Part shown: in pieces, positions 1,935 through 32,950 of the stretch
Layout of the letters: each line of letters opens with the position of its first letter
Position numbering within the stretch: the first letter of the stretch is position 1
Assembly (NCBI GenBank): GCA_016935525.1
Contig: JAFGQU010000004.1
Coordinates: 1,314 to 65,313 of the forward strand
DNA: 64,000 bases
Reading direction: 5' to 3'
DNA from: Candidatus Omnitrophota bacterium
Lineage (GTDB): Bacteria; Omnitrophota; Gorgyraeia; Duberdicusellales; 4484-171
Program-made: the position numbers and the translations under genes
Notes under the pieces: model-generated
The model's input: the letters and a program-made list of their open reading frames with translations, nothing else
The model's database searches: none
Told to the model about the DNA's origin: nothing

Positions 1935-4217
1935 TCAACCGGACAACTTCACCGTACGTAATCGAAGAGCGTTACCGATCACCGAAACCGAACTGAAACT
2001 CATCGCGGCACCGGCAATCATCGGATTCAACAATAATCCTAAAAAAGGATAGAGTATACCGGCCGCGACCGGGATACCCAGCGCGTTATAGATAAACGCA
2101 AAAAACAGGTTCTGACGGATATTACGCATCACCGCCCGGCTTAAAGTTAACGCGTTCACGATACCGGTTAAATCGCCTTTTACCAAAGTAATCCCGGCGC
2201 TTTCGATAGCGACATCCGTTCCGGTCCCCATCGCCACGCCGACTTCAGCTTCGGCTAACGCCGGCGCGTCGTTGATCCCGTCGCCGGCGGCCATAACGAA
2301 CGCGCCTTCTCGTTTCAACTTTTTCACGATATCCTGTTTATCTTTCGGTTCAAGACCCGCATAGACTTCAGTGATACCTAATTCTTCAGCGATCGCCCGG
2401 GCAGTTTTTTGATTATCACCGGTCACCATGACGATCTTGAGTCCCATCTTATGTAACGCATCAATCGCACCCGGTGTCGTTTCTTTTATAGGGTCAGCGA
2501 CACTAAGTATCCCGGCTATCCGCTCTGCGACCGCGACCCAGATAACCGTTTCGGCTTTCTCCTGAAGCTGGACGGCTTTCTTTTTCAGTTCTTCGGGCAG
2601 ACCTATTCCGGAGCTTTCAATGAATTTTTGTTTCCCCAGAAAGACAGCCTTGCCGTTCAGCGCACCTTTCACTCCACCGCCGGTTACGGACTGAAAATCA
2701 TCAATCGGGTCTAATTCGGCCCCTTTCTCTTTCGCATGTGCAACAACGGCGCGCGCGAGGGGATGTTCACTGCTTTGTTCAAGAGAAGCCGCAACATTCA
2801 ACAATGCCGGTTCAATCCACCCGTCGGCGGTAATCACCGTCTTTACGTGCGGTTTCCCGGCAGTCAACGTGCCGGTCTTATCGGTAAGGAGATGGGTAAC
2901 TTTTTCGCACTTCTCGATCGCTTCGGCATTTTTGATCAATATTCCCGATTGCGCGCCGCGGCCGACACCGACCATGACCGATATCGGTGTTGCCAATCCT
3001 AACGCGCAGGGACAGGCAATGATCAGGACCGAAATCGCGCTGACCAACGCGTACGCTAAAGCCGGCCGGGGACCAAATACAAACCATACGATAAAGGCGA
3101 CAACAGCACAGGCCAGTACCGCGGGAACAAAATAACCGGAAACCTTATCGGCAAGGGTTTGAATCGGAGCGCGGCTGCGTTGCGCCTGGGCTACCATATC
3201 CACGATCTGGGAAAGTAATGTTTCCGACCCGACCTTTTCGGTACGCATGACGAACGTGCCGGTCTGGTTCACGGTCGCGCCGATGACCCGGTCACCTTCC
3301 TTTTTAGTCACCGGAAGAGGTTCGCCGGAGATCATCGATTCATCGACCGTGCTTTTTCCTTCAATAATGATACCATCTAAAGGAACTTTTTCGCCGGGAC
3401 GTACCCGCAACATATCGCCTTTTTGTACCTCTTCGATAGCGACCTCTTCTTCTTTACCGTCACTAATACGATGCGCACCTTTGGCGGCAAGGCCGAGTAA
3501 CGCTTTGATCGCTTGTCCCGTCCGCGTACGGGCCCGCGCCTCCAGAAGCTGGCCGAGAAGTACCAATACGGTAATAACTGTCGCAGCTTCAAAATAGAGG
3601 CCGATCTCGCCGGCCTGCTTCAATGACGCAGGGAAAATACCGGGAAACAATACCGCCAGAGCGCTGAACCCGTATGCCGCGCCCACACCCATCGCGATCA
3701 AAGTGAACATATTCGGGCTTTTATGTAAGATCGAACGCCAAGCTTTTACAAAAAAAATGCTGCCGGACCAGAACACGACCGGAGTCGCCAGAATAAACTG
3801 GACCCAACGGGAAAATCCGGAAGGGATAACTGTTCGTAGATCAAAGCCCGGGATCATCTCGCCCAGAGCAAGGATGAAAACAGGTAATGTTAAGGTCAGT
3901 CCGATCCAGAATCTATGAAATAATGACCGTGTTTCCCGGTTATCGTTTTCGTCTGCGCCGGCGACGTTTTTTAGTTCAAGATGCATACCGCATTTCGGAC
4001 AATCGCCGGGAGTATCCTGTTCGATCTCAGGATGCATCGGACAGGTATAAATACCGGTATCGACCCTATCGCCGGACGGACGGCTCTTATGTAAGAACTT
4101 GTCCTGACATTTTTGACTGCAGAAAAAATAGGTTTTACCGTCTTTTTCTGATCTCAACGAATTCTGCTCATTTACCGCCATACCACAAATAGGGTCTTTA
4201 GTCATATTTTTCACCAC
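1935..4217 (-). CDS. copA: Copper(I)-translocating P1B-type ATPase with N-terminal TRASH/YHS-like and CPMHPE metal-binding motifs.
   Basis: Motifs found: [24 protein letters not shown], the transmembrane CPC motif ([13 protein letters not shown]), DKTGTLT, TGDN and GDGINDAP. Confidence 0.9.
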
Positions 4218-4259: not shown

Positions 4260-4742
4260 TCACTGGACAATATCCCGAGTGATATCGCCGCTGGGTTTTA
4301 TCTGGCTGACTTCTTTTATCCTGATCTTTAAAATACTCACGGTTTTAAGCGAAATAAGTTCATCCACAAGACTGCGCGTGCTTTTCCTCACTCCCTGGAT
4401 GACTCGTTCGGTAGCTAATCTGACCTGTTTACTGTTCATCTCACCAGAAAGCTGCCGGAACACGTCGCCTTTATCGATCACCTCGGCCCTACCGTACAAT
4501 TGATAGCCGATGACTTTATTCATATCGACCGCCGATAAAGAGATCTTCGGGTTACGTTTTATGTTTTTATAGGTCCGGCCCACGACGAAATCGACCAGAT
4601 AAATATAGTTGTCCTCTATCTTTAACAAGGGTTTGGCGGACGTATGCGGCCGGCCGCGTTTATCGGAAGTACCGATAAACAGAAATACCTGGCGCCGCAA
4701 AAAATCCATGATCTCTTTTGTAAATAATTTTCTGTCTATCAC
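4260..4742 (-). CDS. Pyridoxamine 5'-phosphate oxidase-like FMN-binding protein.
   Basis: FIGTSDKRGRPHTSAKP and YQLYGRAEV fit the PNPOx split-barrel pattern. The start overlaps the stop of the upstream radical SAM gene (ATGA), indicating translational coupling. Confidence 0.5.
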   Translation of the reverse strand: MIDRKLFTKEIMDFLRRQVFLFIGTSDKRGRPHTSAKPLLKIEDNYIYLVDFVVGRTYKNIKRNPKISLSAVDMNKVIGYQLYGRAEVIDKGDVFRQLSGEMNSKQVRLATERVIQGVRKSTRSLVDELISLKTVSILKIRIKEVSQIKPSGDITRDIVQ

Positions 4743-6421
4743 GGCCTATTCTTCCTTACATGGGTTTGCGCTTCTTTCAGTTGATCAAGAAACGTGCTTT
4801 TCTTAAATTTCTGGGTCCACCCTTTCATCACTATCCAGCCTCCGAAACGGGCCAGACTGTTCCGCCACGGCCGGTACCATTGTCTCCATCCTGATTTGAT
4901 GTTATGCAGAAAAAAGATCATCGCGGGGAACGTGAACACGTGGATACCGATCATAAACATGTATTTTAACTGGTAAAACCGGCCCATGATCTTATGCATC
5001 GCGACCTGTAATTCCTGGGCCGAAAGCGGCGCGTCGGGTTCAAATATCGGAAAATTACCGTCATAATATTCCCATCCGATATCGGCAAGCGGATAGACCC
5101 GGTTCTGATGTTGAAGGCGGTCCCGTAATTGAGTACCCGGTAACGGGACCGGTAATAATACCTGTATCGTATCGATCTTCGCTTTTTTGATAAACGTCCT
5201 GTACCGTTTGATCCGTTCGTTAAGAGATATTTTTGGGGCCGACGCCTCTTTGAACGGGTAGCCGAAAATAAACATCCCGTGTACCAGAAACCCGAACCGG
5301 TGATAGACCCGCGCAAGTTCTATCATGTCTTCAGGCCGTAACCGTTTATTCATCGCTTTTAATTCTTCTTCGATCGGCGATTCAAAACCGATGGCTACCG
5401 TATTGATACCGGCGGAACGCATAGCTTTAAGTAATTCAGGATCTTTCGCGTTATCCAACCGTATTTGGACCGTCACATCTAACCGTTTACGTGTACGCAA
5501 CTGATAATCCCGTAACATATGACAAAACCGTATAGTCTCATCCCTGTACTGGCCGAATAAGTCGTCTATAATAAAAAAATGCCGGGCATCATAAGTTTCT
5601 AAAAGGACTTTGATCTGTTCAAGCAACCGTTCCGAAGAAGCGCATCGAGGTTTACCTTTGACGGCACAGAACTCGCAATCCATCCCGCACCCGCGGATTT
5701 TCCCGATCGGATACATTTTGATCCGGGCATACCGGACCAGTGAAAAATCAGGGATCGGTAACGCGTCGAAATCGGTGATCGGCTCGCGCGGGGCGGTGAC
5801 CATGACCTGATGCTCTTTCAAATACGCGATACCCGGGATCTGGCTGATCTCTTTCGTACCGGTAAAACTTTTAAGCAGTTCTTTTATCGTCTCCTCTCCT
5901 TCACCGATCACCACATAATCTATACCCGATTCTAACGCTTCCCGGATATTGTCGCCGGCAAAATGCTGTCCTCCGGCGATAGTAATGACCCCTCTTTCTT
6001 TATAAAACCGCGCTACATCATAAAGCCGGGGGATCGTACTGGTAAGCCCGCCGTAGAACCCGACTACATCCGCGGGACGCTCCTGCTGTAAATACTCGTG
6101 GTTTGCGCCGCGTGAACCTCTTGGCCCATACCCGCGAAGATTGTTTTCGTCAATTACCTCGACATCCCAATTTTCCATCTTGTTGACGGTAGTGGCGATA
6201 CATACCGGGCCGAGCGCGGTCGTCTTATCGGCAATATTCGAATAGATGTTAAACGCCGGATATACGGGATTTATGAGCCTGAATCGGTGTCTTTTTTTTG
6301 TTATATCAAACATAATTATAAAAGTGAATCTCCTCGGACTAAAAGCCCGAGGCTTCTTCACGTTCCGCCAAACTCCGTTCGGCGGGACATCCGCCTGAGG
6401 CGGATAATTTCTCGCATTCAT
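4739..6421 (-). CDS. B12-binding-domain radical SAM protein with a hydrophobic C-terminal extension.
   Basis: N-terminal Rossmann-like B12-binding region (VVGFYGGLTSTIPRLYDVARFYKERGVITIAGGQH). The radical SAM motif is CGMDCEFC (CxxxCxxC). Confidence 0.75.
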   Translation of the reverse strand: MNARNYPPQADVPPNGVWRNVKKPRAFSPRRFTFIIMFDITKKRHRFRLINPVYPAFNIYSNIADKTTALGPVCIATTVNKMENWDVEVIDENNLRGYGPRGSRGANHEYLQQERPADVVGFYGGLTSTIPRLYDVARFYKERGVITIAGGQHFAGDNIREALESGIDYVVIGEGEETIKELLKSFTGTKEISQIPGIAYLKEHQVMVTAPREPITDFDALPIPDFSLVRYARIKMYPIGKIRGCGMDCEFCAVKGKPRCASSERLLEQIKVLLETYDARHFFIIDDLFGQYRDETIRFCHMLRDYQLRTRKRLDVTVQIRLDNAKDPELLKAMRSAGINTVAIGFESPIEEELKAMNKRLRPEDMIELARVYHRFGFLVHGMFIFGYPFKEASAPKISLNERIKRYRTFIKKAKIDTIQVLLPVPLPGTQLRDRLQHQNRVYPLADIGWEYYDGNFPIFEPDAPLSAQELQVAMHKIMGRFYQLKYMFMIGIHVFTFPAMIFFLHNIKSGWRQWYRPWRNSLARFGGWIVMKGWTQKFKKSTFLDQLKEAQTHVRKNRP

Positions 6422-6503: not shown

Positions 6504-7577
6504 TCAAGGGGACAATTGAGAAGGATGAGCAGGAATGATTTCTTTCATGGTATCCATCCAGGAAGGATCGTCATGGCGGACCTTCCGGTAATACCAATAT
6601 TCCACCCCCCAGAGAAAAACGGTGTCGAACCCCACCGACGCCATTTCTTTAAACACCGAAGTATAGCTCTGAAGGGGGCACATCAATTCTTCTTCATCCG
6701 CGTGGACAAGCTTGCCGGGTTCCCAGGGTTCCGCCTGGAGTTCGGTGACCCAGGCCTCTTTCTGCTGTCCGTGCACTTTTTGTACAAGAGAACGTATATA
6801 GAAAACCAGCTGTTCCATCCGTGTCTTAAAACAGAATCTCATACCGCCCCATTTATGCCCTATCACCGGATAGATATTAAAAGCGGGTATATCCGCTATT
6901 CCTACCGTTTCCCGTATCGGGTCGCGCCGGTAGATCAACCGGAAAAGAAGACGTAAGAATGTATTAGAGGTAGCCAGCACATTCACCACGACCGGCCGGT
7001 TTTCAGGATCGAGTCGTCTCACCAGCGCGATCTCTTCTTGAAGGAAATCTCTTCCGATCCGCCAGCCGAAAGGGCCGGAATGATTGAAGGGTTCGTTCTC
7101 TATCTGCCAGGCGTATACCGCTTCATGTTCACGATAACGGCCGACTACTTTACGGATAAACTTCAGCACTGCCGCGCGCACTTCTTCATGTTGAGTTATA
7201 TCGGCGCCGCGGCGCATCCTGATCTTTACTTTCAGCCAGTCCGGCAGATAATACTCGGGCCAACGCGGCGACTTCATCCCTACCGTCAGGAGCACTTTTA
7301 TTTTCTTTTGGGCCGCGATATCCAATTGCCAATCAAGTTCGGAAAAATCGTATTCCCCTTCTTCTCTTTCTATCCGCGACCAGTAGGCACCGAGGCGTAA
7401 GAACTCGAAATCCATGCCGGTGATCTCTTCATACGTCTCTTTCCAATCGATACCGAGATAATCGCATTGCTGCTGACTGAATGTAGTTCCCAGGCGCGGT
7501 TCGGCGGCAGGACATAAACCGATGGCCACACTGTGCAATAGGATAACTGCGGACAAAATGAAGAGTCTCATAGGCAT
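6504..7577 (-). CDS. Secreted glycoside hydrolase, GH5-like (beta-glycanase).
   Basis: Signal peptide MPMRLFILSAVILLHSVAIG. WQIENEP matches the GH5 acid/base NEP motif. WVTELQ is a candidate nucleophile-Glu strand. Confidence 0.6.
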   Translation of the reverse strand: MPMRLFILSAVILLHSVAIGLCPAAEPRLGTTFSQQQCDYLGIDWKETYEEITGMDFEFLRLGAYWSRIEREEGEYDFSELDWQLDIAAQKKIKVLLTVGMKSPRWPEYYLPDWLKVKIRMRRGADITQHEEVRAAVLKFIRKVVGRYREHEAVYAWQIENEPFNHSGPFGWRIGRDFLQEEIALVRRLDPENRPVVVNVLATSNTFLRLLFRLIYRRDPIRETVGIADIPAFNIYPVIGHKWGGMRFCFKTRMEQLVFYIRSLVQKVHGQQKEAWVTELQAEPWEPGKLVHADEEELMCPLQSYTSVFKEMASVGFDTVFLWGVEYWYYRKVRHDDPSWMDTMKEIIPAHPSQLSP

Positions 7578-9221
7578 CTAATTTTTCCGGTATTTTTCCG
7601 TTACCCAGAATTCCATGTATTTACCTAACATCAGGCGGGTTTGCGCGTCCAGGGCGGGAACAGCGCTTAATACGATAACGGCCACCGGAATAAAGAACCA
7701 CTCGAAAACGTGTCGTACCTTTTTGAATATTCCGTATCGCACTCTGCTTTTAGGTAAAAGCAGCGAACTGATGATCATACATATGAATATTCCCATTGAT
7801 CCCAAACTATAAATCGTTCCTTTAATACGGGGAGCGGTATAATAAATCATACTCGAAGAAAACGCCTGGGAAGCGAAAAGGCCGGGCATCCATAATCCAA
7901 AAGATAAGAGAAACGACCAGGTCGCCCAGGAAATAAACCCTTCCAGCATTTTATAGGTATGAGATATTTTCTTACGAAACGGTATAGACCGGGATTTTAA
8001 AAAGGCCCGGATGACGATCGGTAAGTTCTCCACGCCCCAGGCCCAGCGGCGTTTCTGTTTATAAATATTTAAAAACGTCTTTTTCATAGACGGGCCGGTC
8101 GCGATATCCATGGAAACGATCGTATATATCGGAACAGCCTGATAATTCCCGTCATAATGGATGAACGCTTTCCAGAATATCGCCGAATCATCGGAAATCA
8201 TATCTACCGGCCAGCAGCCTACCTCCATCAACGCTTTGAACGTCATACTGTGGCTTGAAAAGGTAACCAGCTTTTGAGGATTGGTCGCTTCGATCAATTG
8301 GAAGAACGAGGTCCCGATATCGATGATCCGGGCAAAAGCCGGCGCTTCCCAGACATTATTGTGATATACGGGAATAGGTTGATAACTTGATTTTAACCGG
8401 TCGGGAGAGATCATAAAATAATACGTCAAACAACCGAAATAACGGGAGTTAGGAACGGTATCGGCATCAAAACAGGAAACCAGAACGTTTTCAAACGGAA
8501 TATTGCGTTTCGTAAGATATCCCGCGGCCCATTTGGCGGCATGAGTGGTATTTGCTCCTTTTACTTTCGCTTCACCCGGCTGACCGGCCGGATGGATGAT
8601 GACTACAAAATCGAGAAACACGCCTTTATATTTTTCTTTTATCCGATACATGTCTTGTTTGACCTCATCGGTCGCGCTTTCTTCCAGAGCGATTATGACC
8701 AAGAACCTTTTGCAAGGGTAATTGCCTTCTTTAATCGCTTTCACCCCCGGTTCTACGATATCGATAGTTTCCCGGATGACCGGGATGATCACCAGATGAT
8801 GGATATCCCGGGACAATGGCGGTAAGTCATCCCTTCGGATAAGCCCCCTCAATTGTCGACAATAGAGGTATGCCGATATCTTATTTTTGAGGCTATTGAT
8901 CTTATCCGGTTCACAAAAATCCGGTGCCCGCGATCGCAATTGATCTATGGCTGATATCCGTTCCATCCAGTCGGTATTTTTTTCGATCTCAAGACGCATG
9001 TAAGAAAGAATAAGAAAAATATTCATGTACACCAGCCTGAGCAGCCAGTAAAGGATAAACGCGATCATAAATACGGCCGCGGCGAGAGGCTGCACTATCG
9101 AAAATACAAATATTCCGATGATAATCGTCCAGCTTAACGCGCCGGGAACGATCTCCAGGAACCGTTCGAGCCTTTTTTCTTTCTCCGAGAGTACATATCG
9201 AGAATATTTGAAATCCATCAC
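7578..9221 (-). CDS. Processive family-2 glycosyltransferase (cellulose-synthase-like exopolysaccharide synthase). No PilZ domain.
   Basis: Multi-pass membrane protein. CFDADT is a DxD motif. QKRRWAWG is the Q(Q/R)xRW motif of processive GT2 synthases. The start overlaps the upstream gene stop (ATGA). Confidence 0.75.
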   Translation of the reverse strand: MMDFKYSRYVLSEKEKRLERFLEIVPGALSWTIIIGIFVFSIVQPLAAAVFMIAFILYWLLRLVYMNIFLILSYMRLEIEKNTDWMERISAIDQLRSRAPDFCEPDKINSLKNKISAYLYCRQLRGLIRRDDLPPLSRDIHHLVIIPVIRETIDIVEPGVKAIKEGNYPCKRFLVIIALEESATDEVKQDMYRIKEKYKGVFLDFVVIIHPAGQPGEAKVKGANTTHAAKWAAGYLTKRNIPFENVLVSCFDADTVPNSRYFGCLTYYFMISPDRLKSSYQPIPVYHNNVWEAPAFARIIDIGTSFFQLIEATNPQKLVTFSSHSMTFKALMEVGCWPVDMISDDSAIFWKAFIHYDGNYQAVPIYTIVSMDIATGPSMKKTFLNIYKQKRRWAWGVENLPIVIRAFLKSRSIPFRKKISHTYKMLEGFISWATWSFLLSFGLWMPGLFASQAFSSSMIYYTAPRIKGTIYSLGSMGIFICMIISSLLLPKSRVRYGIFKKVRHVFEWFFIPVAVIVLSAVPALDAQTRLMLGKYMEFWVTEKYRKN

Positions 9222-10663
9222 CGATTCTCCTGTCTCTCTTTTTCACCAAACGCGAAAGGTATCATCGTTTCTTTAAGGAGGATCTTCAGTTTCTTTAGAC
9301 CTCCGTTTTGATCCAAATAATATATATATCCGTCCTCATCGGAATAAAAGATATCGGAATTATTCTGAGCTCTGACGATATATTCGAGGTGGTGCTTTTC
9401 GTCCGACATCAATTCCAGTAAAAACAACCGGTCTCTCTCCCGGTAAAGTATATGAGTCCCGTTATGCACCCAAAAACATTGAGCGATGTTCCGGCCGCCG
9501 CTATAGACTAACCGCACCGAAACCGGATACTGGAATAACGATTCGCTGTCATCTTCACCGGTGAAATCGGCGACCCAGATCGTATCGTTCGTCCAATAGA
9601 GAAGACGTTTTCGCTGTTTATTATAATCCACTCCTTTCACCCCTTCCTCAGCGAGGATATGCGGCGGAATCGTTACGATCAAATCTCCTTTATCGCCCCA
9701 AAACAGAAACACATCGTTATCAAGAAACCGTACCCGGTAAGACCGTGATGTATCGAATATTCTTTCTCCGAAATATTTACCTTCAAACAGTACCGTAGAC
9801 AGCTCAAGGTCTACTGTCGTTCGTAAAAAAGAGTTGTTTTTCTCCAAGACATACAGCCATCTTCCCGAAGCGCCGAACCCTTTCATCTCATTGATAAAAC
9901 GGGGAGACAACGACATTTCCCGGAAATTCACGCGGTTCACATACCCGTTATACACCGCGAAACAATCTTCCTCATCCAAAACCCTCCACAGAAATCTATC
10001 GGGTTTCTCGGAGATAAGTTTCGTAATATCTACGGGTTCTTTTTCCCCTTCGGTGAGATCGATCAAATAAAACTTTTTATCCCACAACGACCCGCCGTAC
10101 ACGATGGCACTTTTTCCGCCTCTTAGCAAGTATAGTGAAGATACCGCAAAATCCCGAGTCGGTGCGTATTCATTCGTAAAAGAAACAACTTTCTCTTTTT
10201 TCCGGTCGAAACCATAGAAATCTTTAAGCTGGGCTCCTTTTTTCAGTATAACTCCTCCGCTTTCCGGAAAAAACATCAGGCTTGCGTATTTCGATTCCGA
10301 AGAAAGTTCCTGCGGTTCCCATACCGCGGGAACAAGAAGGATATTATTAAATGCCGATGCTTTGCCTTCTTCAATCGTCACCCGATGCCGCCAGGGACGA
10401 AACCCTTTCAACCGGACCGTTACTTTATATTTTCCGGGAAGCAGTTCGGTAATTGAGGTAGGGGTTTTATATCTAAACCGGCTGTTTTCCAGATATACAT
10501 CGGCTCCGGAAGGGATTGTCGCCAGATGAATCAGGCCGGTATGGGAGATCTCTTTCTTTATAGGGTGGAGAATATATCCGAACGAATAAAAAATGATGAG
10601 AGGGCAAAGTATGCAATATGCCGCTAAGAAAACATAAAAAGTGATTTTTCGCGCGATAAACAT
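9218..10663 (-). CDS. Membrane-anchored periplasmic protein with a PEGA domain and a large beta-rich domain. Putative co-polymerase partner of the GT2 synthase (BcsB-like role).
   Basis: N-terminal TM helix. The PEGA-like segment is IPSGADVYLENSRFRYKTPTSITELLPGKYKVTVRLKGFRPW. About 380 aa of W/Y/F-rich repeats follow. First gene of the three-gene operon. Confidence 0.5.
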   Translation of the reverse strand: MFIARKITFYVFLAAYCILCPLIIFYSFGYILHPIKKEISHTGLIHLATIPSGADVYLENSRFRYKTPTSITELLPGKYKVTVRLKGFRPWRHRVTIEEGKASAFNNILLVPAVWEPQELSSESKYASLMFFPESGGVILKKGAQLKDFYGFDRKKEKVVSFTNEYAPTRDFAVSSLYLLRGGKSAIVYGGSLWDKKFYLIDLTEGEKEPVDITKLISEKPDRFLWRVLDEEDCFAVYNGYVNRVNFREMSLSPRFINEMKGFGASGRWLYVLEKNNSFLRTTVDLELSTVLFEGKYFGERIFDTSRSYRVRFLDNDVFLFWGDKGDLIVTIPPHILAEEGVKGVDYNKQRKRLLYWTNDTIWVADFTGEDDSESLFQYPVSVRLVYSGGRNIAQCFWVHNGTHILYRERDRLFLLELMSDEKHHLEYIVRAQNNSDIFYSDEDGYIYYLDQNGGLKKLKILLKETMIPFAFGEKERQENR

Positions 10664-10765
10664 TTATTCCCGTTCTCCTAAATGACCTCCCGCCCTAAAC
10701 GTTATGCCATTATACCAGAACGGGAAAATTTGATAAGAAAAACAGGGGGGCAAATTGCCCCCTGT

Positions 10766-11074
10766 TCAATGGACAGATATTTTTCGGGCATGCAGGAAGC
10801 TTTTTTCCACGGGTGCGGTTATTCTAAGCATGCCGTCCCGAAAATCGGCATCTATCCTTTTGGTATCTACCTCTTCGCAAAACCGGTAGCAGGAATCAAA
10901 AACCAAGTCCTCCTTTTTCGCTTTCAGGCAGAACCCGGCTTTTCCGGCATCCAACACGATATCTCTTTTTCTCACTCCGGCCAGATCTATCTCGGTAGTA
11001 ATGGTGCTTCCTTCATCGCTGTAATACATGTCTACCGGCGGACACATATGAAATTCTATCTTTTCTCTTTTCAT
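10766..11074 (-). CDS. Hsp20/alpha-crystallin family small heat-shock protein.
   Basis: IDLAGVRKRDIVLD and FRDGMLRITAP are the alpha-crystallin domain hallmarks. Confidence 0.55.
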   Translation of the reverse strand: MKREKIEFHMCPPVDMYYSDEGSTITTEIDLAGVRKRDIVLDAGKAGFCLKAKKEDLVFDSCYRFCEEVDTKRIDADFRDGMLRITAPVEKSFLHARKISVH

Positions 11075-11358: not shown

Positions 11359-11787
11359 TTAAACCGTTTTAATCCATCCCTCGATTGTTTCCTTGATTTT
11401 ATCTCTTACGATCCTGGTTTTCGCTAATTTTTCCTGGGGTGAACCCTGAAAACTCGAGGGATCGGCGAATCCCCAGTGAAGCATCCGGAGCGTATTAGGA
11501 AAAATCGGGCATTTCTGCGACTGCGATTCATCACATACGGTGATGACGTAATGGTACCGTTTACCCTGTTTGTAGAAATCGAACGCGCTTTTGGTCTTAT
11601 TCCCGGAAATATCGATGCCGATCTCTTTCATGACCTCGACCGCTACCGGGTTCAACCTACCCGGTTCAAGGCCGGCGCTTTCGACTTCAAACCGGTCGCC
11701 GGCAAGCTGTTTTAAAAAAGCCTCCGCCATCTGGCTGCGGGCCGAATTATGCACACAGACAAATAAAACCTTCAATTTATCACTCAT
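11359..11787 (-). CDS. arsC: Arsenate reductase of the LMW-PTP/thioredoxin-coupled family.
   Basis: [15 protein letters not shown] contains the CX5R P-loop. Downstream cysteines are in the expected context. Confidence 0.85.
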
Positions 11788-11805
11788 AAGATCTCCTCCT
11801 TCTTT

Positions 11806-12015
11806 TTATTTAATGTACAATTCGGTAAGGATAAACATTAATAACGCTATAATAGATAATATTCCAACAACCAGATATCCTTGAACCAGATTATCTTTAA
11901 TTGGACACTCGCATTCTTTATTGTCACATTTTCTGGATTTCCACATAAAATACCTGTAAATGCCCAAGAAAAAAAGAACAGATACGACGGATTGAATCAA
12001 TATTTTAATATTCAT
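11806..12015 (-). CDS. Small two-TM membrane protein with an inter-helix Cys cluster (CDNKECECP), sitting in the ars operon.
   Basis: Internal start MNIKIL is preceded by GGAGG 8 nt upstream. The longer track start at 12036 is less likely. The Cys-rich loop lies between two hydrophobic helices. Confidence 0.35.
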
Positions 12016-12157
12016 GGTTCTGACCTCCGCTAACATGGTTACCTGTACTCGAGATAAAAAGACAACAAGGTCCCGACTTGCCTCGTTCAGGAGAAGACAG
12101 CAATGCAGACACTAACAACCCCGCCACAACAAGGATGTATTTAAACCACATTTTCAT
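12005..12157 (-). CDS. Small (50 aa) secreted or membrane peptide with a signal-peptide-like N-terminus and a CC motif. Below the ORF-track size cut-off.
   Basis: Translation is [50 protein letters not shown]. It lies between ACR3 and the small membrane protein and overlaps the latter out of frame. RBS is weak. Confidence 0.2.
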   Translation of the reverse strand: MKMWFKYILVVAGLLVSALLSSPERGKSGPCCLFISSTGNHVSGGQNHEY

Positions 12158-12179
12158 GTTTAAACCCCGTTAGAGAATT

Positions 12180-13364
12180 TCATCTTCGAGCGTTGGTCTT
12201 CTCTAACGGGGTAAACCAATATTGTGTATTAAGACAGAATTTAACAAGCATCAACATTACCGGAACCTCAATGAGAACCCCAACTACGGTCGCCAGAGCC
12301 GCTCCGGATGACAGGCCGAATAACATTGTCGCGGTAGCGATAGCAACTTCAAAATGGTTGCTTGCCCCGATCATGGCCGACGGCGCCGCGTCTTCATAAC
12401 TCAATTTTATTTTTTTCGCCAGCCAGTACGTAATCGCGAATATTAAACAAGTCTGTATAAAAAGCGGTATCGCGATCCACAATATCGTCAACGGTTGAGA
12501 AAGGATAATCTCACCTTTAAACGAAAATAAAAGGACAAGCGTTACCAATAACGCTGTTATTGAGACCGGCGCGAGAACGTGCAGGAACTTCTCGTTAAAC
12601 CATTCAATCCCTTTAGAACCGATGATCCATTTTCTTGAAAAATAACCGGCGATAAGCGGCAGCGCGACATAAATCGCGATAGACAGCAACAACGCCTGCC
12701 AGGGAACCGGCATACGCCCGATTCCAAGAAGAAAGCCTCCCAGGACACCGTACAGCAAAAGCATTGTCAAAGAATTGATCGCGACCATGACCAGAGTATG
12801 TCCGTCATTTCCTTTGGATAAATATCCCCACACCAGCACCATCGCCGTGCACGGCGCGATACCAAGCAAAATACACCCGGCAAAATAACTTCGCCATAAC
12901 GGGACCTGTAGCATTTTCATCCCTTCATGAAAAACTACTCTTCCTGAGCCGTGAATAGAGCCCAGGACCCAATCCGCGCCGGGAGGAAGTTTCACGAAAT
13001 CTACCGCTTCCGGTCCGATCAGGCCTTTAAACAATACCCCCAAAAACAAAAACGCGATACCGTACATGGTAAACGGCTTTATCGCCCAGTTCACAAATAA
13101 AGTCAACCCGACCGGCTTCGGGGATTTTCCCGCTTTGATGACTTCCGCGAAATCAATTTTTACCATAATGGGATACATCATAAAAAACAGACATACTGCG
13201 ATCGGAATGGAAACCACCGGAGCGCCGCTCACATTTATGGCAAAGCTATCAAGCGCCTTAGCAACACCGGGTGCCATTTTCCCCAGCAGTATTCCGGCAC
13301 CGATGCAGGCAATCACCCATACGGTCAGATATTTCTCAAAAAACCCTAAACTTCTTTCAGCCAT
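12180..13364 (-). CDS. acr3: Arsenite efflux permease of the ACR3 family.
   Basis: [10 protein letters not shown]-terminal signature. Ten-TM profile and the correct length. Confidence 0.85.
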
Positions 13365-13661
13365 TTACTTCTCCTTAAATTTACAACAACCGCCTTCAAT
13401 CTTTATTGCCTTAATATTCACTAACGCGTCGGCTATTTTTTTATGCGCTGATTCTAATATACGGGATATGGTTGAACGATGAACTTTCATCTTCTTTGCC
13501 ACTTGCATTTGAGTTAAACCTTCAAGATGAGAAAGCCGTATCGCTTCAAATTCGTCTATTGTCATATACACACCATCTAATTTATTCAAAGGTTTACACT
13601 GGGGACGAAAACACCTCTCTCCCGGCTCGCATTTCACCCATCGTGTTTTTTTCGGCCTCAT
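13365..13661 (-). CDS. DUF134/UPF0251 predicted DNA-binding protein with an N-terminal Cys motif. It occupies the regulator position of the ars operon.
   Basis: MRPKKTRWVKCEPGERCFRPQCKP..LTQMQVAKKMKVHRSTISRIL shows the sigma-70 region-4-like HTH typical of DUF134. Its stop abuts the ACR3 start. Confidence 0.6.
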   Translation of the reverse strand: MRPKKTRWVKCEPGERCFRPQCKPLNKLDGVYMTIDEFEAIRLSHLEGLTQMQVAKKMKVHRSTISRILESAHKKIADALVNIKAIKIEGGCCKFKEK

Positions 13662-27621: not shown

Positions 27622-29055
27622 CTACCCTTTCACCGGAAAACACACATCACTTTTGACAGTCATCAGCCCTATCGCTGACCGCGCATATCGTGCGAATTCA
27701 TCAAAAGATTTTATATTGCATAACGTATCGATAAGATACCCGGGCCTAAAATAAAAAGACCGGTAGGCACGTATCGTAAAATCTTCTATTTGCTTTTCGG
27801 TCAGGCCGGTCCAGGGCGAAGGTAACCGTTCTTCACCGGCAACGCCTAATACGAATTCCCGCCAATAATCTCTTTTCATGATGACTTTCACCTGTTCATA
27901 CAGTTCGGTACACGGTTTTGCCATGACTTTATGAAACTGGGCATAATCGACTTTTAATTGTTCGGCGAAACGTATCGTTTTTTTCACGCTCTCTACCGTA
28001 TCTTCCGGCGCCCCGATCAGGAAAAATCCCAACGCTTTCATCCCCTTGGCTTTGGTCATAACGATTGCGCGTTGTATCTGGGCAATAGTGATCCCTTTTT
28101 TTATCGTATCGAGAATACGCTGGTCGCCCGATTCTATACCGTACAGAATTTTTTTAAAGCCGGTCCGGGCCATAATCGCTAACAACTCTTCATCTACCTG
28201 GTCAATCCGGGCCCGGCAGGAAAAGTGGATATCAAGTTTCCGGTTTTGTATCTCCCGACAGATCTCGATAATGCGTTGTCTATCGATGGTAAAACTGGGA
28301 TCGAATATATCGATCTCACGGATATTATATTTCCGGTAACATTGTTCGATCTCATCGGCCACGCCCACCGGCGAGCGGCAACTGTAAGGGGTATTCTGGA
28401 TATGACAGAACGAGCATTTACCGGGACAACCTTTACTGGTCATCAATATCGTGAAGTTTTTTCTTTTGGACATGACTTCCCGATAACACTGGTTAGGAAG
28501 CAGATGCCGGGCCGGAAAAGGCAACGTATTAAAATCTTCATAAAAACTTCCGGGATAATGGATAACGACTTTCCCGTTTTTTCGAAACACTATCCCTTCT
28601 ATATCTTCCAGAGAACCGTTTTTTTCTAAAGCCGAAAGCAGTTTAGGAAGAGAGTGTTGGGCCGAGCCGATAATCCCGTAATCGATCTCTTTATGGCTAA
28701 ACGTCTCCTCCGGGTAAAGCTGTAATTGGATATTCCCTACCAGTATCGGGGCGTTAAGATGTCTTTTGATATACTTTATCCAGGATAAGGTGAGTTGAAA
28801 AGTCCATACCGTAAGCATGAACCCGATCAGGTCGGGATTAAACTCCCGTAATATCTTCACTGTTTTTTCCTCACTGAACCTTAACGCATTCGCGTCTATA
28901 ATGATCACGGTATGGCCGGATTGTTCCATAATCGCCGCCGCATAGGCGAGCCCTAAAGGCGGCATAAGTCCGAATTCACGGCCGACCACATCGATATCTT
29001 CTTCGAACCGTCTATGCCGGTGGCTATAATGAGGAAATACAAGCGCGATGTTCAT
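27622..29055 (-). CDS. B12-binding radical SAM protein (HpnJ-like architecture).
   Basis: N-terminal B12-binding Rossmann region. The radical SAM motif is CPGKCSFC. 477 aa. Its stop overlaps the start of the YdjC-family gene. Confidence 0.7.
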   Translation of the reverse strand: MNIALVFPHYSHRHRRFEEDIDVVGREFGLMPPLGLAYAAAIMEQSGHTVIIIDANALRFSEEKTVKILREFNPDLIGFMLTVWTFQLTLSWIKYIKRHLNAPILVGNIQLQLYPEETFSHKEIDYGIIGSAQHSLPKLLSALEKNGSLEDIEGIVFRKNGKVVIHYPGSFYEDFNTLPFPARHLLPNQCYREVMSKRKNFTILMTSKGCPGKCSFCHIQNTPYSCRSPVGVADEIEQCYRKYNIREIDIFDPSFTIDRQRIIEICREIQNRKLDIHFSCRARIDQVDEELLAIMARTGFKKILYGIESGDQRILDTIKKGITIAQIQRAIVMTKAKGMKALGFFLIGAPEDTVESVKKTIRFAEQLKVDYAQFHKVMAKPCTELYEQVKVIMKRDYWREFVLGVAGEERLPSPWTGLTEKQIEDFTIRAYRSFYFRPGYLIDTLCNIKSFDEFARYARSAIGLMTVKSDVCFPVKG

Positions 29056-29876
29056 GCCGCTCTCTCTTCGGTCGATCCTATCTCATATTCAGCAATCATT
29101 TCCCGGACATCATCGGATAATAACGCATGCGTTTCCTGATCCCGGCTTTTACCCGGCGCGGTCCGATCAACGCGATGGCCGGGATGGACCATCAATTCAG
29201 TAACCCCTGGGGGTAATGAATGTAACATAGCAATTAAATCTTTTTTTTGCACACGACAGCTCCGGTCAAACCCTTTAAACCAGTTACTGGTCTGTAACCC
29301 CTTATTTTGAATTTTTTTTCTTAACTGGGCTGCGCAATATCGCACCGCCGCCCCTAACAGAGTCCGCCGTTCGGAATAAGGGCATCGTACGTAAGGGATC
29401 CCGTATTCTTGAGCGCACTCCAGCAGAAAATCGGTAAAAAAAGGGAAAAGATGAGTATGCTGATGACTGTCAAGATGGGTAAGGATAAACCCTTCCCTTT
29501 TTATCCGTTCGATCTGGGCTTCGACTTCTTGTTTCACCCTTACCATATCTATTTTGCCTAAAAAGAAATTTTTTATTATCTCCGGATACCGCGGGAAGAA
29601 AAAACCTTCGGGAGACGTGAGCCCTTTGATGGGTCCGGACAACGGTCTCCCTTCACCGACCAAGACAATATGTATCCCGATGGCACGGATCCCTTCTTCT
29701 TTTAAGAGAGCGAACGATTCGGGTATTCCCGCAATATCATGCGCGCACAGTGAAACGCGATGCACACTTCCGGCTTTATAACAGGCGATGATGTTTTTAT
29801 TGATTTCTTCAGCGAAACCATAATCATCGGCATTGATTATGATCCGTTTTGAACTATGAGGAGGTTCGACCGACAT
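29052..29876 (-). CDS. YdjC/ChbG/HpnK-family carbohydrate deacetylase.
   Basis: IINADDYGFAEEINKNI is the YdjC N-terminal metal-binding motif. The HLDSHQH motif follows. Confidence 0.75.
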   Translation of the reverse strand: MSVEPPHSSKRIIINADDYGFAEEINKNIIACYKAGSVHRVSLCAHDIAGIPESFALLKEEGIRAIGIHIVLVGEGRPLSGPIKGLTSPEGFFFPRYPEIIKNFFLGKIDMVRVKQEVEAQIERIKREGFILTHLDSHQHTHLFPFFTDFLLECAQEYGIPYVRCPYSERRTLLGAAVRYCAAQLRKKIQNKGLQTSNWFKGFDRSCRVQKKDLIAMLHSLPPGVTELMVHPGHRVDRTAPGKSRDQETHALLSDDVREMIAEYEIGSTEERAA

Positions 29877-30431: not shown

Positions 30432-30890
30432 CTATTCCATCTTAAGAGATTCCACAAGCGCGCTTATCGCATCTTGAATATCTTTTTCAATAGAGAGTTT
30501 CGCCTGAAGATGGAAAAAAAATAAGAAAACGAAAAAGATGGTAACCGTTATCTTCCCGATTTTCTTACGGGGAAGCATCCAGCCGGCAATCGCGCCCATG
30601 ATGATCCAGTAGAGAAATACGATCAACGTAACAAAAGGTTCCGAAATAGGTTGCGGCATACGCAATACGAACAGTACCGGTACCGAAGCAAAAAACAGTA
30701 TGATACCGTCGAGGCCTAACTTTTCGGCAATACCGAAGACCCCCAGGATCATCAACAACCCACCCCCCCCTAATCCGCAGAGCGCGCCTTTTATCCACGA
30801 ATACGTAACTATTTTCATACCAAGGCCATCCTTTCCGGTCAAGCTAACTGTATCGTACGATGTACATCGAATTCTACGCCGGCCTCCCAC
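30432..30890 (-). CDS. Hypothetical membrane protein.
   Basis: Four predicted TM helices and no recognisable motif. Confidence 0.3.
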   Translation of the reverse strand: MGGRRRIRCTSYDTVSLTGKDGLGMKIVTYSWIKGALCGLGGGGLLMILGVFGIAEKLGLDGIILFFASVPVLFVLRMPQPISEPFVTLIVFLYWIIMGAIAGWMLPRKKIGKITVTIFFVFLFFFHLQAKLSIEKDIQDAISALVESLKME

Positions 30891-31189
30891 AGCCCTTTCT
30901 CTACTTCTCTACACCATCTCACCTTTACGTTTTTCTGTACCGGGTTACGGATATAAGAAGATCGTACGGCAATCGAGATCCTCTCACCCACAGAAAGAGG
31001 GAGATTAAGTACTATCTTCATCCCTCTTACCGAAACATCCTTCACTTCCGCGGGTTTTTCCACTACTCCGTCCCGGGAAACCTGCGCTGAAACTTCCATG
31101 CCTAACCGGGTATACGCGCGGCGATATTTACTGTATGTTCTGCGATATACCGGGAGAAAACTTTTATCGGTCTCTGAACGTGTATTCAT
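30839..31189 (-). CDS. PilZ-domain protein (c-di-GMP receptor).
   Basis: The RxxxR motif is YRRAYTR and the D/NxSxxG motif is DVSVRGMKI. Confidence 0.55.
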   Translation of the reverse strand: MNTRSETDKSFLPVYRRTYSKYRRAYTRLGMEVSAQVSRDGVVEKPAEVKDVSVRGMKIVLNLPLSVGERISIAVRSSYIRNPVQKNVKVRWCREVEKGLWEAGVEFDVHRTIQLA

Positions 31190-31261: not shown

Positions 31262-32950
31262 TTATCCCAGCGATGCGACTTTCTGCTCCAGCTCGATCAT
31301 TTTCGTCGAAACATACCGGTTTACCATGCCCCGTTCCAATACCCCTACTACGCGTTTTTCTTCAGTCACTACCGGAAGATAATCCAGATTACACTTATCC
31401 ATCATTTCCCGGGCTTCACTGATAGGGATATGAGAAGGAATGTCCGGAGGCGGGGGATCCATGATATCGTGAGCGACAAAAATGTGTCCCAAGTCGTGAT
31501 ACTGGAAGCTTCGGCGGATACTTTCTACGGTAATCACGCCGGCTAACCGCTCACCGGTCTCTACTACCGGGTAATACAGGCATTCGTGCTGGCTGAAAAT
31601 ATCAAGGATGTCGGTCAACGGAATATTCTTGTACATCAACGGATAATTCTTATCCATCACGTCTTCTACTCTGGCTTTACGTAATATGTCCTCTTCGGTA
31701 ATATTTAATCCCACTTCCTGCGCTTTTTCTACGGCATACTTGACCGAAGTCGGCCCGAGTAATTGGACCACAAACGTAGATGCGGTAATAATGATCACGA
31801 TAGAAAGGCCGATATCTCCGGGGAAAGCGTGATAGGCTACTATAGACAATCCGATAGCGACCCCGGCCTGGCTGAAAAGACAAAACGGTAAATATTTCTG
31901 GACTGTACTGGGAGCGCCGGAGAATCGCCCGCCTAACATCGCACCGACCATCTTTCCTATCGTCCGGCCGATAAGATAAATACTGGCAATGGCGATCACC
32001 GGTAAGGTCATGTTATGCATATTGAGTTTTGCCCCGATAAGGACAAAAAATAACACGTAAAGAGGCGAAGCGAATGAAGAGACTAACTTGAATACCTCTT
32101 TACTCATCCGCGGCACGCAATTGACCACGACCGTACCTAACGCCATCGCCGCAAGCAGCATATCCACTTTTATCGCCAAAGAAAAACCCAGCACAAACAG
32201 TACCGCGCCTAAGGAAAACGCAAGGACCCGTTCCCGTTCGGTATATTTACGGATCATCTTAGAAAGGCTCAGGCCGGCAAGCGTTCCCACCACGATTGCG
32301 CCGCCTATTTCATACAACGGATGCACGAGTGCCGGGATAAACCCTTCGGTACTTTGTCCCAAAAGTTTTGCCGCGATACTTGAGGCAATCGCAAAAAGCA
32401 TAAGCGCTAATCCGTCATCCATCGCGACGATCCCTAAGACCATCGTCGTAAGCGGCCCGCGGGTCTTATATTCCCATAACACGTCCGTCGTTGCCGCCGG
32501 CGCGGTCGCCGATGAAATCGCCCCTAAGAGCAATCCCAACGCCCAGTAATACGTCCCCTGGCCGAAGAACAAGGTACCCAGAAACCCCACCAGAAGAAAC
32601 ACAACGATAAAGGCGATAAGTCCTTCCGACAATAAAATAATGGCAAACTGTTTCCCGTAGCGTTTAAATACCTCTCTCTTCAATTCTCCGCCGATAGCGA
32701 ACCCAATCAATCCTAACGCGAAATAGTTGAACGGCTGCATGGTCTCGATAATCTCTTTATCGATAATGTTAAACCCGGTCTGTCCGACGACAATACCGAT
32801 GATAATATAACCGACCACCTGAGGGATCTTGAGTTTCTGGAATACCCGTCCGCCGATCGTTCCCCCGAAAAGGGCAAGACCTAAAAGCAGAAGTATATTC
32901 AGGTCGAAAAAGGATATCCGGGTAAATAGAGGGGAAACCTGTTCAAACAT
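31262..32950 (-). CDS. Monovalent cation:proton antiporter (CPA family) with a C-terminal CBS pair.
   Basis: Na_H_exchanger-type N-terminus (LLLGLALFGGTIGGRVFQKLKIPQVVGYIIIGIVVG). Two C-terminal CBS motifs. Confidence 0.75.
   Translation of the reverse strand: MFEQVSPLFTRISFFDLNILLLLGLALFGGTIGGRVFQKLKIPQVVGYIIIGIVVGQTGFNIIDKEIIETMQPFNYFALGLIGFAIGGELKREVFKRYGKQFAIILLSEGLIAFIVVFLLVGFLGTLFFGQGTYYWALGLLLGAISSATAPAATTDVLWEYKTRGPLTTMVLGIVAMDDGLALMLFAIASSIAAKLLGQSTEGFIPALVHPLYEIGGAIVVGTLAGLSLSKMIRKYTERERVLAFSLGAVLFVLGFSLAIKVDMLLAAMALGTVVVNCVPRMSKEVFKLVSSFASPLYVLFFVLIGAKLNMHNMTLPVIAIASIYLIGRTIGKMVGAMLGGRFSGAPSTVQKYLPFCLFSQAGVAIGLSIVAYHAFPGDIGLSIVIIITASTFVVQLLGPTSVKYAVEKAQEVGLNITEEDILRKARVEDVMDKNYPLMYKNIPLTDILDIFSQHECLYYPVVETGERLAGVITVESIRRSFQYHDLGHIFVAHDIMDPPPPDIPSHIPISEAREMMDKCNLDYLPVVTEEKRVVGVLERGMVNRYVSTKMIELEQKVASLG

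Follow-up and report, generated by a model that had tools for sequence, protein, structure and literature searches.

Within a 64,000-nucleotide stretch of the genome of a Candidatus Omnitrophota bacterium (assembly GCA_016935525.1, contig JAFGQU010000004.1, positions 1,314 to 65,313), referred to here as the window, three consecutive open reading frames (ORFs) on the minus strand encode, in the order of their transcription, a membrane-anchored protein with a PEGA domain (the partner), a membrane enzyme of glycosyltransferase family 2 (GT2) and a glycoside hydrolase. A first-pass annotation, prepared from the sequence of the window, had read these genes as a three-gene exopolysaccharide synthase module, and all three ORFs were recovered where it had placed them, their products having entries of 100% identity from an Omnitrophota metagenome assembly. 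The comparative and structural analyses described here support its logic of synthase, periplasmic partner and hydrolase. The genes are as follows.

9218..10663, minus strand: partner gene, 481 amino acids (aa), with a transmembrane (TM) helix, a PEGA domain and a periplasmic beta-propeller (ORF call, Pfam, AlphaFold2 (AF2) and Foldseek)
7578..9218, minus strand: GT2 synthase-like gene, 546 aa from the ATG at 9218, or 547 aa from the GTG at 9221
6504..7577, minus strand: clan GH-A hydrolase gene, 357 aa, product secreted or anchored (ORF call, Pfam and motifs)

Gene order and conservation of the locus

At the junction between the partner and GT2 genes (cggTGATGg), the TGA stop and the ATG start share a single nucleotide (nt), an overlap that becomes 4 nt (GTGA) if the GTG start is taken; the ATG at 9218 is the start used by all homologues. 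At the GT2/hydrolase junction (TAGATG), stop and start abut with an overlap of 0, and the NCBI start of the hydrolase lies two codons downstream of that of the listed ORF. The ATGA overlaps described in the first-pass annotation were not found, the junctions reading GTGATG and TAGATG instead. The tight coupling for which they had been cited nevertheless stands, and it extends to the relatives, where the partner stop and GT2 start overlap by 4 nt in 33 of the 75 loci with a measurable junction and by 1 nt in a further nine.

Relatives of the GT2 enzyme number more than 2,700 in the protein collection, the top 120 of them at 55-75% identity with nearly all of the named ones labelled as Omnitrophota, and a scan of one genome per GTDB species placed the gene in at least 567 species-level genomes. 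The 80 loci kept from these at least 567 come overwhelmingly from metagenome-assembled genomes (MAGs) of Omnitrophota, with the complete genome of Ca. Velamenicoccus archaeovorus LiM and a number of named genera among them. Neighbours encoding the partner and the hydrolase were sought with hidden Markov model (HMM) searches of six-frame ORFs in 86 fetched loci. The partner gene was found immediately upstream of the GT2 gene, and on the same strand, in all 86; an arrangement that recurs in 86 of 86 independent loci reflects more than chance, and the co-occurrence of PEGA protein and synthase in other genomes, proposed earlier as a check, was thereby established. Many of the pair-bearing MAGs are titled 'uncultured Planctomycetales/Planctomycetia', 'Spirochaetaceae', 'Kiritimatiellia' or 'Deltaproteobacteria' (loci L007, L018-L020, L025, L030 and others); these titles are probably loose or wrong labels and not true occurrences outside the phylum.

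The hydrolase gene adjoins the pair in 23 of the 75 loci with enough flanking sequence, lying directly downstream in 22 and upstream on the opposite strand in one. On the GT2 tree, these loci are distributed over five or more separate clades; at the junction between the GT2 and hydrolase genes, six of them have a 4-nt overlap and another five a gap of no more than 5 nt. Two hydrolase homologues on long contigs, taken as the starting point of a search, led back to a PEGA-GT2 pair, and at least 13 of the top hydrolase matches lie on contigs of the same size as the contigs of GT2 matches, many of them just 5-8 kb long. Because of this return to the pair and the shared contigs, the hydrolase family looks dedicated to the locus while being dispensable to it. 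The conserved core is made up of two genes and the hydrolase is a facultative third member, which refines the three-gene module originally described. In one metagenomic contig (L097, 2564..4994), the PEGA gene (298 aa) and the GT2 gene (354 + 169 aa) are truncated or split upstream of an intact hydrolase gene, with a gene for a Y1 transposase adjacent; this arrangement may represent a decaying copy or an assembly error.

When all flanking ORFs from 83 loci were clustered, no further gene proved recurrent, the cluster next in frequency being present in 11 loci. Within approximately 6 kb, these 83 loci hold no recurrent outer-membrane porin or TPR exporter, PilZ or GGDEF gene, or sugar-nucleotide enzyme. 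Because no outer-membrane exporter is linked to the genes, the label 'exopolysaccharide' was not borne out, and the product may stay in the envelope.

Features of the three proteins

The GT2 enzyme was compared with known synthases individually, as a set of 47 Omnitrophota sequences, and through a profile of a broader family of 61 sequences. The Pfam family Glyco_trans_2_3 is matched by all 47 Omnitrophota enzymes and PF00535 by only one of them; Cellulose_synt matches none of the 47, and no PilZ domain was detected in the GT2 by Pfam, as the first-pass annotation had noted. The NCBIfam model TIGR03937 (PgaC_IcaA) returned 31.2 bits against a cut-off of 422.3. Searching the PDB with the broad 61-sequence profile identified BcsA of E. 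coli as the sole match at E<0.01 (E 0.0075). In profile-profile alignments made with hhalign, the GT2 matched E. coli PgaC with a probability of 96.6% (E 6.6e-10) over 327 columns that run through the C-terminal helices, and E. coli BcsA with an E value of 2.8e-4, with all catalytic motifs in register in both alignments. Given this alignment of motifs and the single match to PF00535, the enzyme does not group with the polyprenyl-phosphate GT2s (DPMS, GtrB and ArnC), nor with the dolichyl-phosphate transferases that the first-pass annotation had named as an example of non-processive GT2s. OpgH (E 0.46, probability 0.1%) and NfrB gave no significant alignment and were rejected as relatives. A tblastn search of 72,556 plasmids yielded just three marginal matches, all to pgaC regions and with E values of 2e-3 or weaker, which leaves a close relation to plasmid-borne Gtf/Tts-type synthases, such as the beta-glucan synthases of lactic acid bacteria, unsupported.

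An AF2 model of the GT2 built on the 47-sequence alignment had a predicted local distance difference test (pLDDT) value of 83.6 and a predicted template modelling score (pTM) of 0.86. A Foldseek search of the PDB with this model ranked BcsA first (4e-9), followed by PcManGT, the hyaluronan synthases and Chs1. The principal motifs of the enzyme are listed below.

8460..8468, minus strand: DxD motif, D251-A-D253, conserved in all family members and aligned with DGD of PgaC and DCD of BcsA
8187..8195, minus strand: equivalent of the catalytic-base motif TED, S342-D343-D344, aligned with TED of PgaC and BcsA
8043..8057, minus strand: acceptor-binding motif QxxRW, Q388-K-R-R-W392, on the predicted interface helix 378-408
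7593..7610, minus strand: FxVTxK motif, F537-W-V-T-E-K542, the BcsA/CesA gating-loop motif, preceded by a conserved PALDAQTRLM

The DxD and QxxRW motifs had been recognized in the first-pass annotation. Together with SDD, K220xxN223 and FxVTxK, they are invariant or nearly so among the 47 Omnitrophota enzymes and the 61 of the wider family: D344 is invariant in the former and conserved in at least 90% of the latter, and Q388 is invariant in all 61 diverse members. Set against their canonical forms, the motifs read IIPVIRE (xPxYNE), ALEES (xxDDG), KVKGAN (KAGNxN), FDADT (DxD), SYQPIP (Q(T)P), ISDDS (TED) and QKRRW (QxxRW). Within FxVTxK, the Phe is present in 46 of the 47, Val in 39, Thr in 40 and Lys in 46, and the counterpart in E. 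coli BcsA is FNVTAK at position 617; this motif is that of the gating loop of BcsA and CesA (PMC11658790; 10.1101/2023.11.20.567928). The protein, which closes with ...PALDAQTRLMLGKYMEFWVTEKYRKN, ends four residues past FxVTxK.

The AF2 model and hydropathy together indicate a basic N-terminal tail, a hairpin of two TM helices (27-74), a cytoplasmic GT-A domain and the interface helix 378-408, followed by TM helices at approximately 424-448 and 468-488 and, after a basic loop, by a hydrophobic helix at 496-530 (core 504-522) and the FxVTxK tail. The model suggests that the GT2 parallels BcsA from interface helix IF2 to the gating loop and then stops, having neither TM7 and TM8 nor a PilZ domain. 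Helix 504-522, if lying at the membrane interface, would keep the FxVTxK tail in the cytoplasm, a placement favoured by the gating-loop motif and the positive-inside rule, and the TM helix of the partner may contribute to the channel of the GT2.

The enzyme has relatives outside the Omnitrophota. A profile search of 1.84 billion cluster representatives returned 441 clusters at E<1e-30, many of them of approximately 500 aa and differing in the N-terminal region, the named members of which belong to the Patescibacteria group or, in one case, to Brevibacterium litoralis. These proteins keep every motif, including the C-terminal PALDAQTRLMxGKYxx[FY]xVTxK, and the GT2 can thus be placed in a wide branch of the cellulose-synthase-like superfamily that has yet to be characterised. 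Of the loci examined, only those of the Omnitrophota type combine the GT2 with the PEGA/propeller partner. The gene stands alone amid housekeeping and cell-wall genes (for penicillin-binding proteins, MreB, DUF3048 and DUF4012) in L087, L091, L092 and L093, which are of the Patescibacteria type, and in L095; in Brevibacterium litoralis (L094), it adjoins a gene for an EamA transporter.

The partner, previously described as a TM-anchored PEGA protein with aromatic-rich repeats, conforms to that description and is composed of three parts.

10568..10660, minus strand: N-terminal TM helix, aa 2-32 (AF2 helix; Kyte-Doolittle hydropathy 2.41)
10349..10537, minus strand: PEGA beta-sandwich, aa 43-105 (Pfam PF08308 and AF2 strands)
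9284..10282, minus strand: beta-propeller, aa 128-460, with approximately seven four-stranded blades (AF2 and Foldseek)

PF08308 matches residues 44-105 of the partner (7e-10; 39 bits against a gathering cut-off of 20.8) and is carried by all 19 of the partner homologues listed. The AF2 model (pLDDT 75, pTM 0.50) contains a helix at 2-32, a sandwich at 43-105 and approximately 33 strands arranged in four-stranded sheets between 128 and 460. A search of the PDB by sequence gave no match to the partner; Foldseek matched its strand region to beta-propellers alone (Lp49, WD40 proteins and the glycan-sensing periplasmic BT4663), with the low TM-scores expected for a multidomain model. On the strength of these sheets and matches, the aromatic-rich repeats, some 330 all-beta residues, are recognized as the blades of a propeller, and the earlier statement that the protein corresponds to no characterised subunit continues to apply. 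The alignments of the partner contain no conserved His or Cys-Tyr site of the kind that a GlxA-like copper centre would have.

The partner evolves faster than the enzyme: identity among its 16 full-length homologues is 36-51%, compared to the 55-75% found for the GT2. Its mean column entropy in an alignment of 72 sequences is 1.50 for the TM helix, 1.96 for the PEGA domain and 2.50 for the propeller, making the TM helix, with its conserved pattern R5..FY..F...Y...CP..I.Y..G....P, the most conserved part. An anchor conserved more strongly than the ectodomain speaks for specific contacts between helices, and from this pattern of conservation we infer that the TM helix of the partner docks onto the synthase within the membrane.

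The hydrolase begins with a signal-like hydrophobic N-terminus, as judged by hydropathy, and has two putative catalytic residues.

7089..7097, minus strand: N161-E162-P163, with the putative acid/base Glu162; invariant and aligned with the NE of GH42 and GH10 enzymes
6738..6746, minus strand: T278-E279-L280, with the putative nucleophile Glu279, inside an invariant TELQAEPWEP

Glu162 and Glu279, which lie 117 residues apart, are invariant in the 43 family members aligned. With Pfam, the window protein matches the N-terminal part of GH42 (4e-15) and GH10 (6e-9) with no match to GH5 (PF00150) at E<=0.01; its 43 family members match GH42 in 43 cases, GH10 in 37, GH5 in 30 (best E 6e-11), GH2_C in 14 and GH35 in 11, and the matches to GH42 and GH10 equal or surpass those to GH5. 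A PDB search found just weak clan GH-A matches, the first half of the barrel aligning with enzymes of GH42, GH10, GH35 and GH5, and marginally with PslG, as far as the NEP motif. Judged by these alignments, the hydrolase would be a clan GH-A (beta/alpha)8 barrel of ambiguous family; of its earlier description as a signal-peptide GH5-like glycanase, the N-terminus and the NEP and TEL motifs were confirmed, and 'GH5-like' proved too specific. NCBI annotates the protein as a GH42 'beta-galactosidase', an assignment rejected here as the full three-domain architecture of that family is absent: the profile match is partial (positions 11-141 of 376), and the matching solved GH42 enzymes are approximately 660-700 aa in length compared to the 357 aa of this protein with its signal-like N-terminus. 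The database annotation is thereby corrected to that of a dedicated hydrolase of the module. A 449-aa GH2_C-like protein encoded near the Kappaea locus was considered as a displaced module hydrolase and shows just weak, clan-level similarity. A retaining enzyme of clan GH-A should cut beta-glycosidic bonds, which fits the product of an inverting GT2 that uses an alpha-linked nucleotide sugar.

Boundaries of the module and neighbouring genes

Two further features precede the partner gene.

10740..10767, minus strand: intrinsic-terminator-like hairpin with a 10-bp stem (6 GC pairs) and a T-run, which ends the upstream Hsp20-like gene
10709..10736, minus strand: sigma-70-like promoter match, TTATCA-16-TATAAT with a TG extension (10/12), a consensus match only

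The Hsp20-like gene occupies 10766..11074 (minus strand) with the hairpin directly after it, and the best promoter-like site of the region sits between this hairpin and the PEGA gene. The hairpin thus appears to mark the 5' boundary of the transcription unit of the module which, with the promoter-like site, would give a clean operon start. A scan of the region for terminators found none comparable 3' of the hydrolase gene. Following the hydrolase gene by 82 nt, with no clear terminator in between, is a gene for a B12-binding radical SAM protein (4739..6421, minus strand) that overlaps a PNPOx/HutZ-like gene (4260..4742) by 4 nt; the best NCBIfam matches of the former are BchE/HpnJ-like at approximately 100 bits, far under the cut-offs. 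These two genes (4260..6421) were rejected as members of the module on the grounds that they do not recur in the flanks of the 83 loci. A second B12-binding radical SAM gene (27622..29055, minus strand) overlaps a gene for a YdjC-like protein of the carbohydrate deacetylase family (29052..29876).

The stand-alone PilZ protein noted in the first-pass annotation is indeed encoded at 30839..31189 (minus strand; 116 aa, Pfam 3e-10). Its gene lies just downstream of one for a Na+/H+ exchanger with CBS domains (31262..32950), and an unannotated ORF of 152 aa overlaps its 3' end. With a distance of 20 kb, unrelated neighbours and no PilZ gene recurring near the module, it has no positional link to the synthase and was rejected as the missing receptor of cyclic di-GMP. 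Closer to the module, and identified from translations alone, are an arsenate-reductase-like gene, an ACR3-like arsenite carrier and a small DUF134-like regulator upstream (11359..13661, minus strand) and a copper-type P-type ATPase downstream (1935..4217, minus strand), which appear to form a metal-resistance neighbourhood.

Proposed function and relation to known systems

The observations taken together make it fairly probable, in our estimation, that the pair constitutes a two-subunit glycan polymerase and translocase of the synthase type in the inner membrane, to which a trimming hydrolase is optionally added. The GT-A domain would take a nucleotide sugar, most likely a UDP-hexose (UDP, uridine diphosphate), on the cytoplasmic side and use it, in an inverting reaction, to extend a beta-linked chain at the non-reducing end while QKRRW holds the chain. 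If processive, the enzyme would then thread the chain across the membrane between its own few TM helices. The TM helix of the partner would pack against the synthase in the role of BcsB, GlxA or PgaD, and in the periplasm the PEGA sandwich and propeller would take up or guide the chain as it emerges, and the hydrolase, if present, may trim, release or proof-read the beta-glycan in the manner of BcsZ, CslZ or PslG. Because PilZ, a linked cyclic di-GMP gene and an outer-membrane porin are all absent and the pair is phylum-wide, the product is more likely to be a constitutive glycan of the envelope or surface than a switchable biofilm matrix. Our best guess is a beta-linked polymer of hexose, perhaps a glucan. 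The combination of DD, DxD, KAG, ED, QxxRW and FxVTxK marks beta-glucan synthases and, in Mycoplasma, KAG, ED and FxVTxK mark those that make glucan (PMC11658790).

By analogy, the closest functional counterparts appear to be BcsA-BcsB-BcsZ of the Proteobacteria and CslA-GlxA-CslZ of Streptomyces, both with a partner not homologous to that of the Omnitrophota. With the former, the module has in common the DxD, TED-equivalent, QxxRW and FxVTxK motifs, an adjacent gene for a single-pass, mostly periplasmic partner, and a gene for a periplasmic glycanase. Unlike BcsA, to which its similarity is marginal even with the broad profile, the GT2 has no PilZ domain and no helices after the gating-loop motif. 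The partner combines PEGA and propeller domains with an N-terminal anchor, whereas BcsB has carbohydrate-binding and flavodoxin-like domains with a C-terminal anchor. The order of the two genes is also reversed, the hydrolase is of clan GH-A instead of GH8, and no BcsC porin is linked. As for the Streptomyces system, the Omnitrophota host belongs to a lineage of the PVC group and is taken to be diderm, whereas Streptomyces is an actinomycete. Common to the two are the translational coupling of a GT2 to a non-homologous partner, an N-terminal TM helix with an extracytoplasmic propeller, and an adjacent glucanase gene. GlxA, the TM helix of which has been proposed to bind CslA, binds the synthase and is needed for its activity, and the partners with which core synthases pair are described in general as 'lacking homology' (10.1101/2023.11.20.567928). 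Unlike GlxA, a copper radical oxidase that has a Cys-Tyr cofactor, the Omnitrophota propeller lacks such a site and is joined to a PEGA domain; CslA shares 27% identity with BcsA and retains a partial PilZ domain, whereas the Omnitrophota GT2 is far more divergent and shorter.

PgaC, the best profile-profile match, is likewise a small enzyme without PilZ that needs a small membrane partner, PgaD; the Omnitrophota enzyme, however, scores far under the cut-off of TIGR03937, PgaC has no FxVTxK, and no PgaD, PgaB (the deacetylase) or PgaA was found in the flanks of the 83 loci. The stand-alone GT2 synthases of Mycoplasma are compact, free of PilZ and, in the glucan makers, built on the same motif logic with modelled channels of few TM helices (PMC11658790); they have no partner subunit and occur in wall-less monoderms, and the comparison made with them covers motifs and architecture. 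In the absence of PilZ, of BcsB and BcsC, of a PgaC equivalog score, of PgaB, PgaD and PgaA, and of homology to OpgH, the module lies outside the Bcs, Pga and Opg families.

Several observations weigh against the proposal of a two-subunit synthase. The similarity of the GT2 to characterised synthases is marginal: the window protein barely passes the Glyco_trans_2_3 cut-off of 27 bits, at 29.5, and neither this protein nor the 47-sequence Omnitrophota profile finds a match in the PDB by sequence. Glu179 (8682..8684, minus strand; ALEE, ACE or AGE) is invariant, even in distant members, in place of the canonical UDP-binding Asp of DDG, which may hint at another donor or another geometry of binding. 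Four clear TM helices and one ambiguous hydrophobic helix are to be compared with six channel helices in BcsA, and a membrane-spanning helix 504-522 would put FxVTxK in the periplasm, where it could not serve as a gating loop. No PEGA partner lies next to the distant GT2 relatives in any of six loci (Patescibacteria-type, Brevibacterium and others), and the hydrolase is missing from the neighbourhood in approximately 70% of loci. For every member of the family, the activity, the product and the physical complex are so far inferred from sequence.

The main rival explanation is that the GT2 is a non-processive enzyme that glycosylates a lipid or lipid-linked acceptor on the cytoplasmic side of the membrane with a single sugar or a few, as a glycolipid synthase or a PcManGT-like enzyme would, with the PEGA/propeller protein using or flipping the glycolipid outside; we consider this unlikely. 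PcManGT of Pyrobaculum (PDB 6yv7), which we take to be a 'minimal cellulose-synthase-like' mannosyltransferase, was the second-best structural match, and only about four TM helices are predicted in the GT2. QxxRW is not exclusive to processive enzymes, being present also in the non-processive lipid glucosyltransferases of GT21. The gene is nearly universal and highly conserved, like that of a housekeeping lipid enzyme, and the relatives in Patescibacteria stand alone among housekeeping and cell-wall genes. PcManGT is, however, 200 residues shorter than the GT2, its sequence signal is limited to a weak match at the N-terminal nucleotide-binding motif (E 0.35, broad profile), and we know of no periplasmic partner or hydrolase associated with it. 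BcsA, the hyaluronan synthases and CesA align over more residues, with BcsA scoring higher, and the Omnitrophota enzyme has an obligate periplasmic partner. The recurring, dedicated secreted hydrolase implies that glycosidic bonds, whether internal or terminal, are present in a glycan outside the cytoplasm. Moreover, FxVTxK, KxxN and SDD are typical of beta-glucan synthases, and among the Mycoplasma synthases reported to make polymers are some whose modelled channels have no more than three helices (PMC11658790).

An alternative that differs from the favoured explanation just in the destination of the product is that the pair makes a glycan kept in the envelope, either periplasmic, resembling the osmoregulated glucans, or associated with the wall, by analogy with OpgG-OpgH and with the hydrolase setting chain length. 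The gene for a periplasmic protein precedes and overlaps that of a membrane GT2 in both systems (in E. coli, in the case of opgG-opgH), neither has a dedicated outer-membrane exporter, none being found with the Omnitrophota pair nor any cyclic di-GMP module within the flanks searched, and the phylum-wide distribution is typical of housekeeping functions. We regard this alternative as quite unlikely, given that OpgH shows no detectable similarity to the much smaller Omnitrophota GT2, that the partner does not have an OpgG-like fold, and that a gene for an exporter could lie in another part of the genome. Finally, that the hydrolase stands outside the machinery as a secreted enzyme against polysaccharides of prey, host or environment, downstream by chance in some lineages, is very improbable: its adjacency in a minority of loci, the 'beta-galactosidase' label and the proposal that Omnitrophota are predators or parasites with many secreted carbohydrate-active enzymes (PMC10066038; 10.64898/2026.06.07.730766) would suit it, but its same-strand adjacency in separate clades, the overlaps and short gaps, the pairs adjoining both homologues looked up independently, and the small contigs shared with GT2 genes would not.

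A search of the literature open to searching found no description of this module or of a PEGA-GT2 pairing. What is familiar is the logic of the synthase-dependent pathway; what is new is the architecture of the co-subunit, the truncated BcsA-like enzyme without PilZ, and the conservation across a phylum. Synthase-dependent polysaccharide systems consist of a GT2 core with lineage-specific partners, and BcsB, PgaD and GlxA have each shown how translocation is coupled to events outside the membrane. As a tentative extension, which we hold to be possible and somewhat short of probable, the PEGA/propeller protein would add a fourth class, recruited independently, to the co-subunits BcsB/CcsB, PgaD and GlxA, the pair would build an envelope glycan that defines the phylum Omnitrophota, and the GT2 would belong to an ancient 'minimal BcsA-like' family that can be told by its C-terminal PALDAQTRLMxGKYxxFxVTxK and is shared with Patescibacteria and a few Actinomycetota.

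There are, to our knowledge, no isolates of Omnitrophota, the cells of which are approximately 0.2 um in size and are believed either to depend on other cells or to be their predators. Because its two genes can be expressed heterologously, the pair offers a concrete and cheap handle on the chemistry of the Omnitrophota envelope; it is likewise a candidate determinant of contact between cells and a minimal model of how glycans are translocated. If the fourth class of co-subunit and the shared GT2 family prove true, they would point to a surface polymer common to ultra-small bacteria that depend on hosts, one that may help them attach to host cells.

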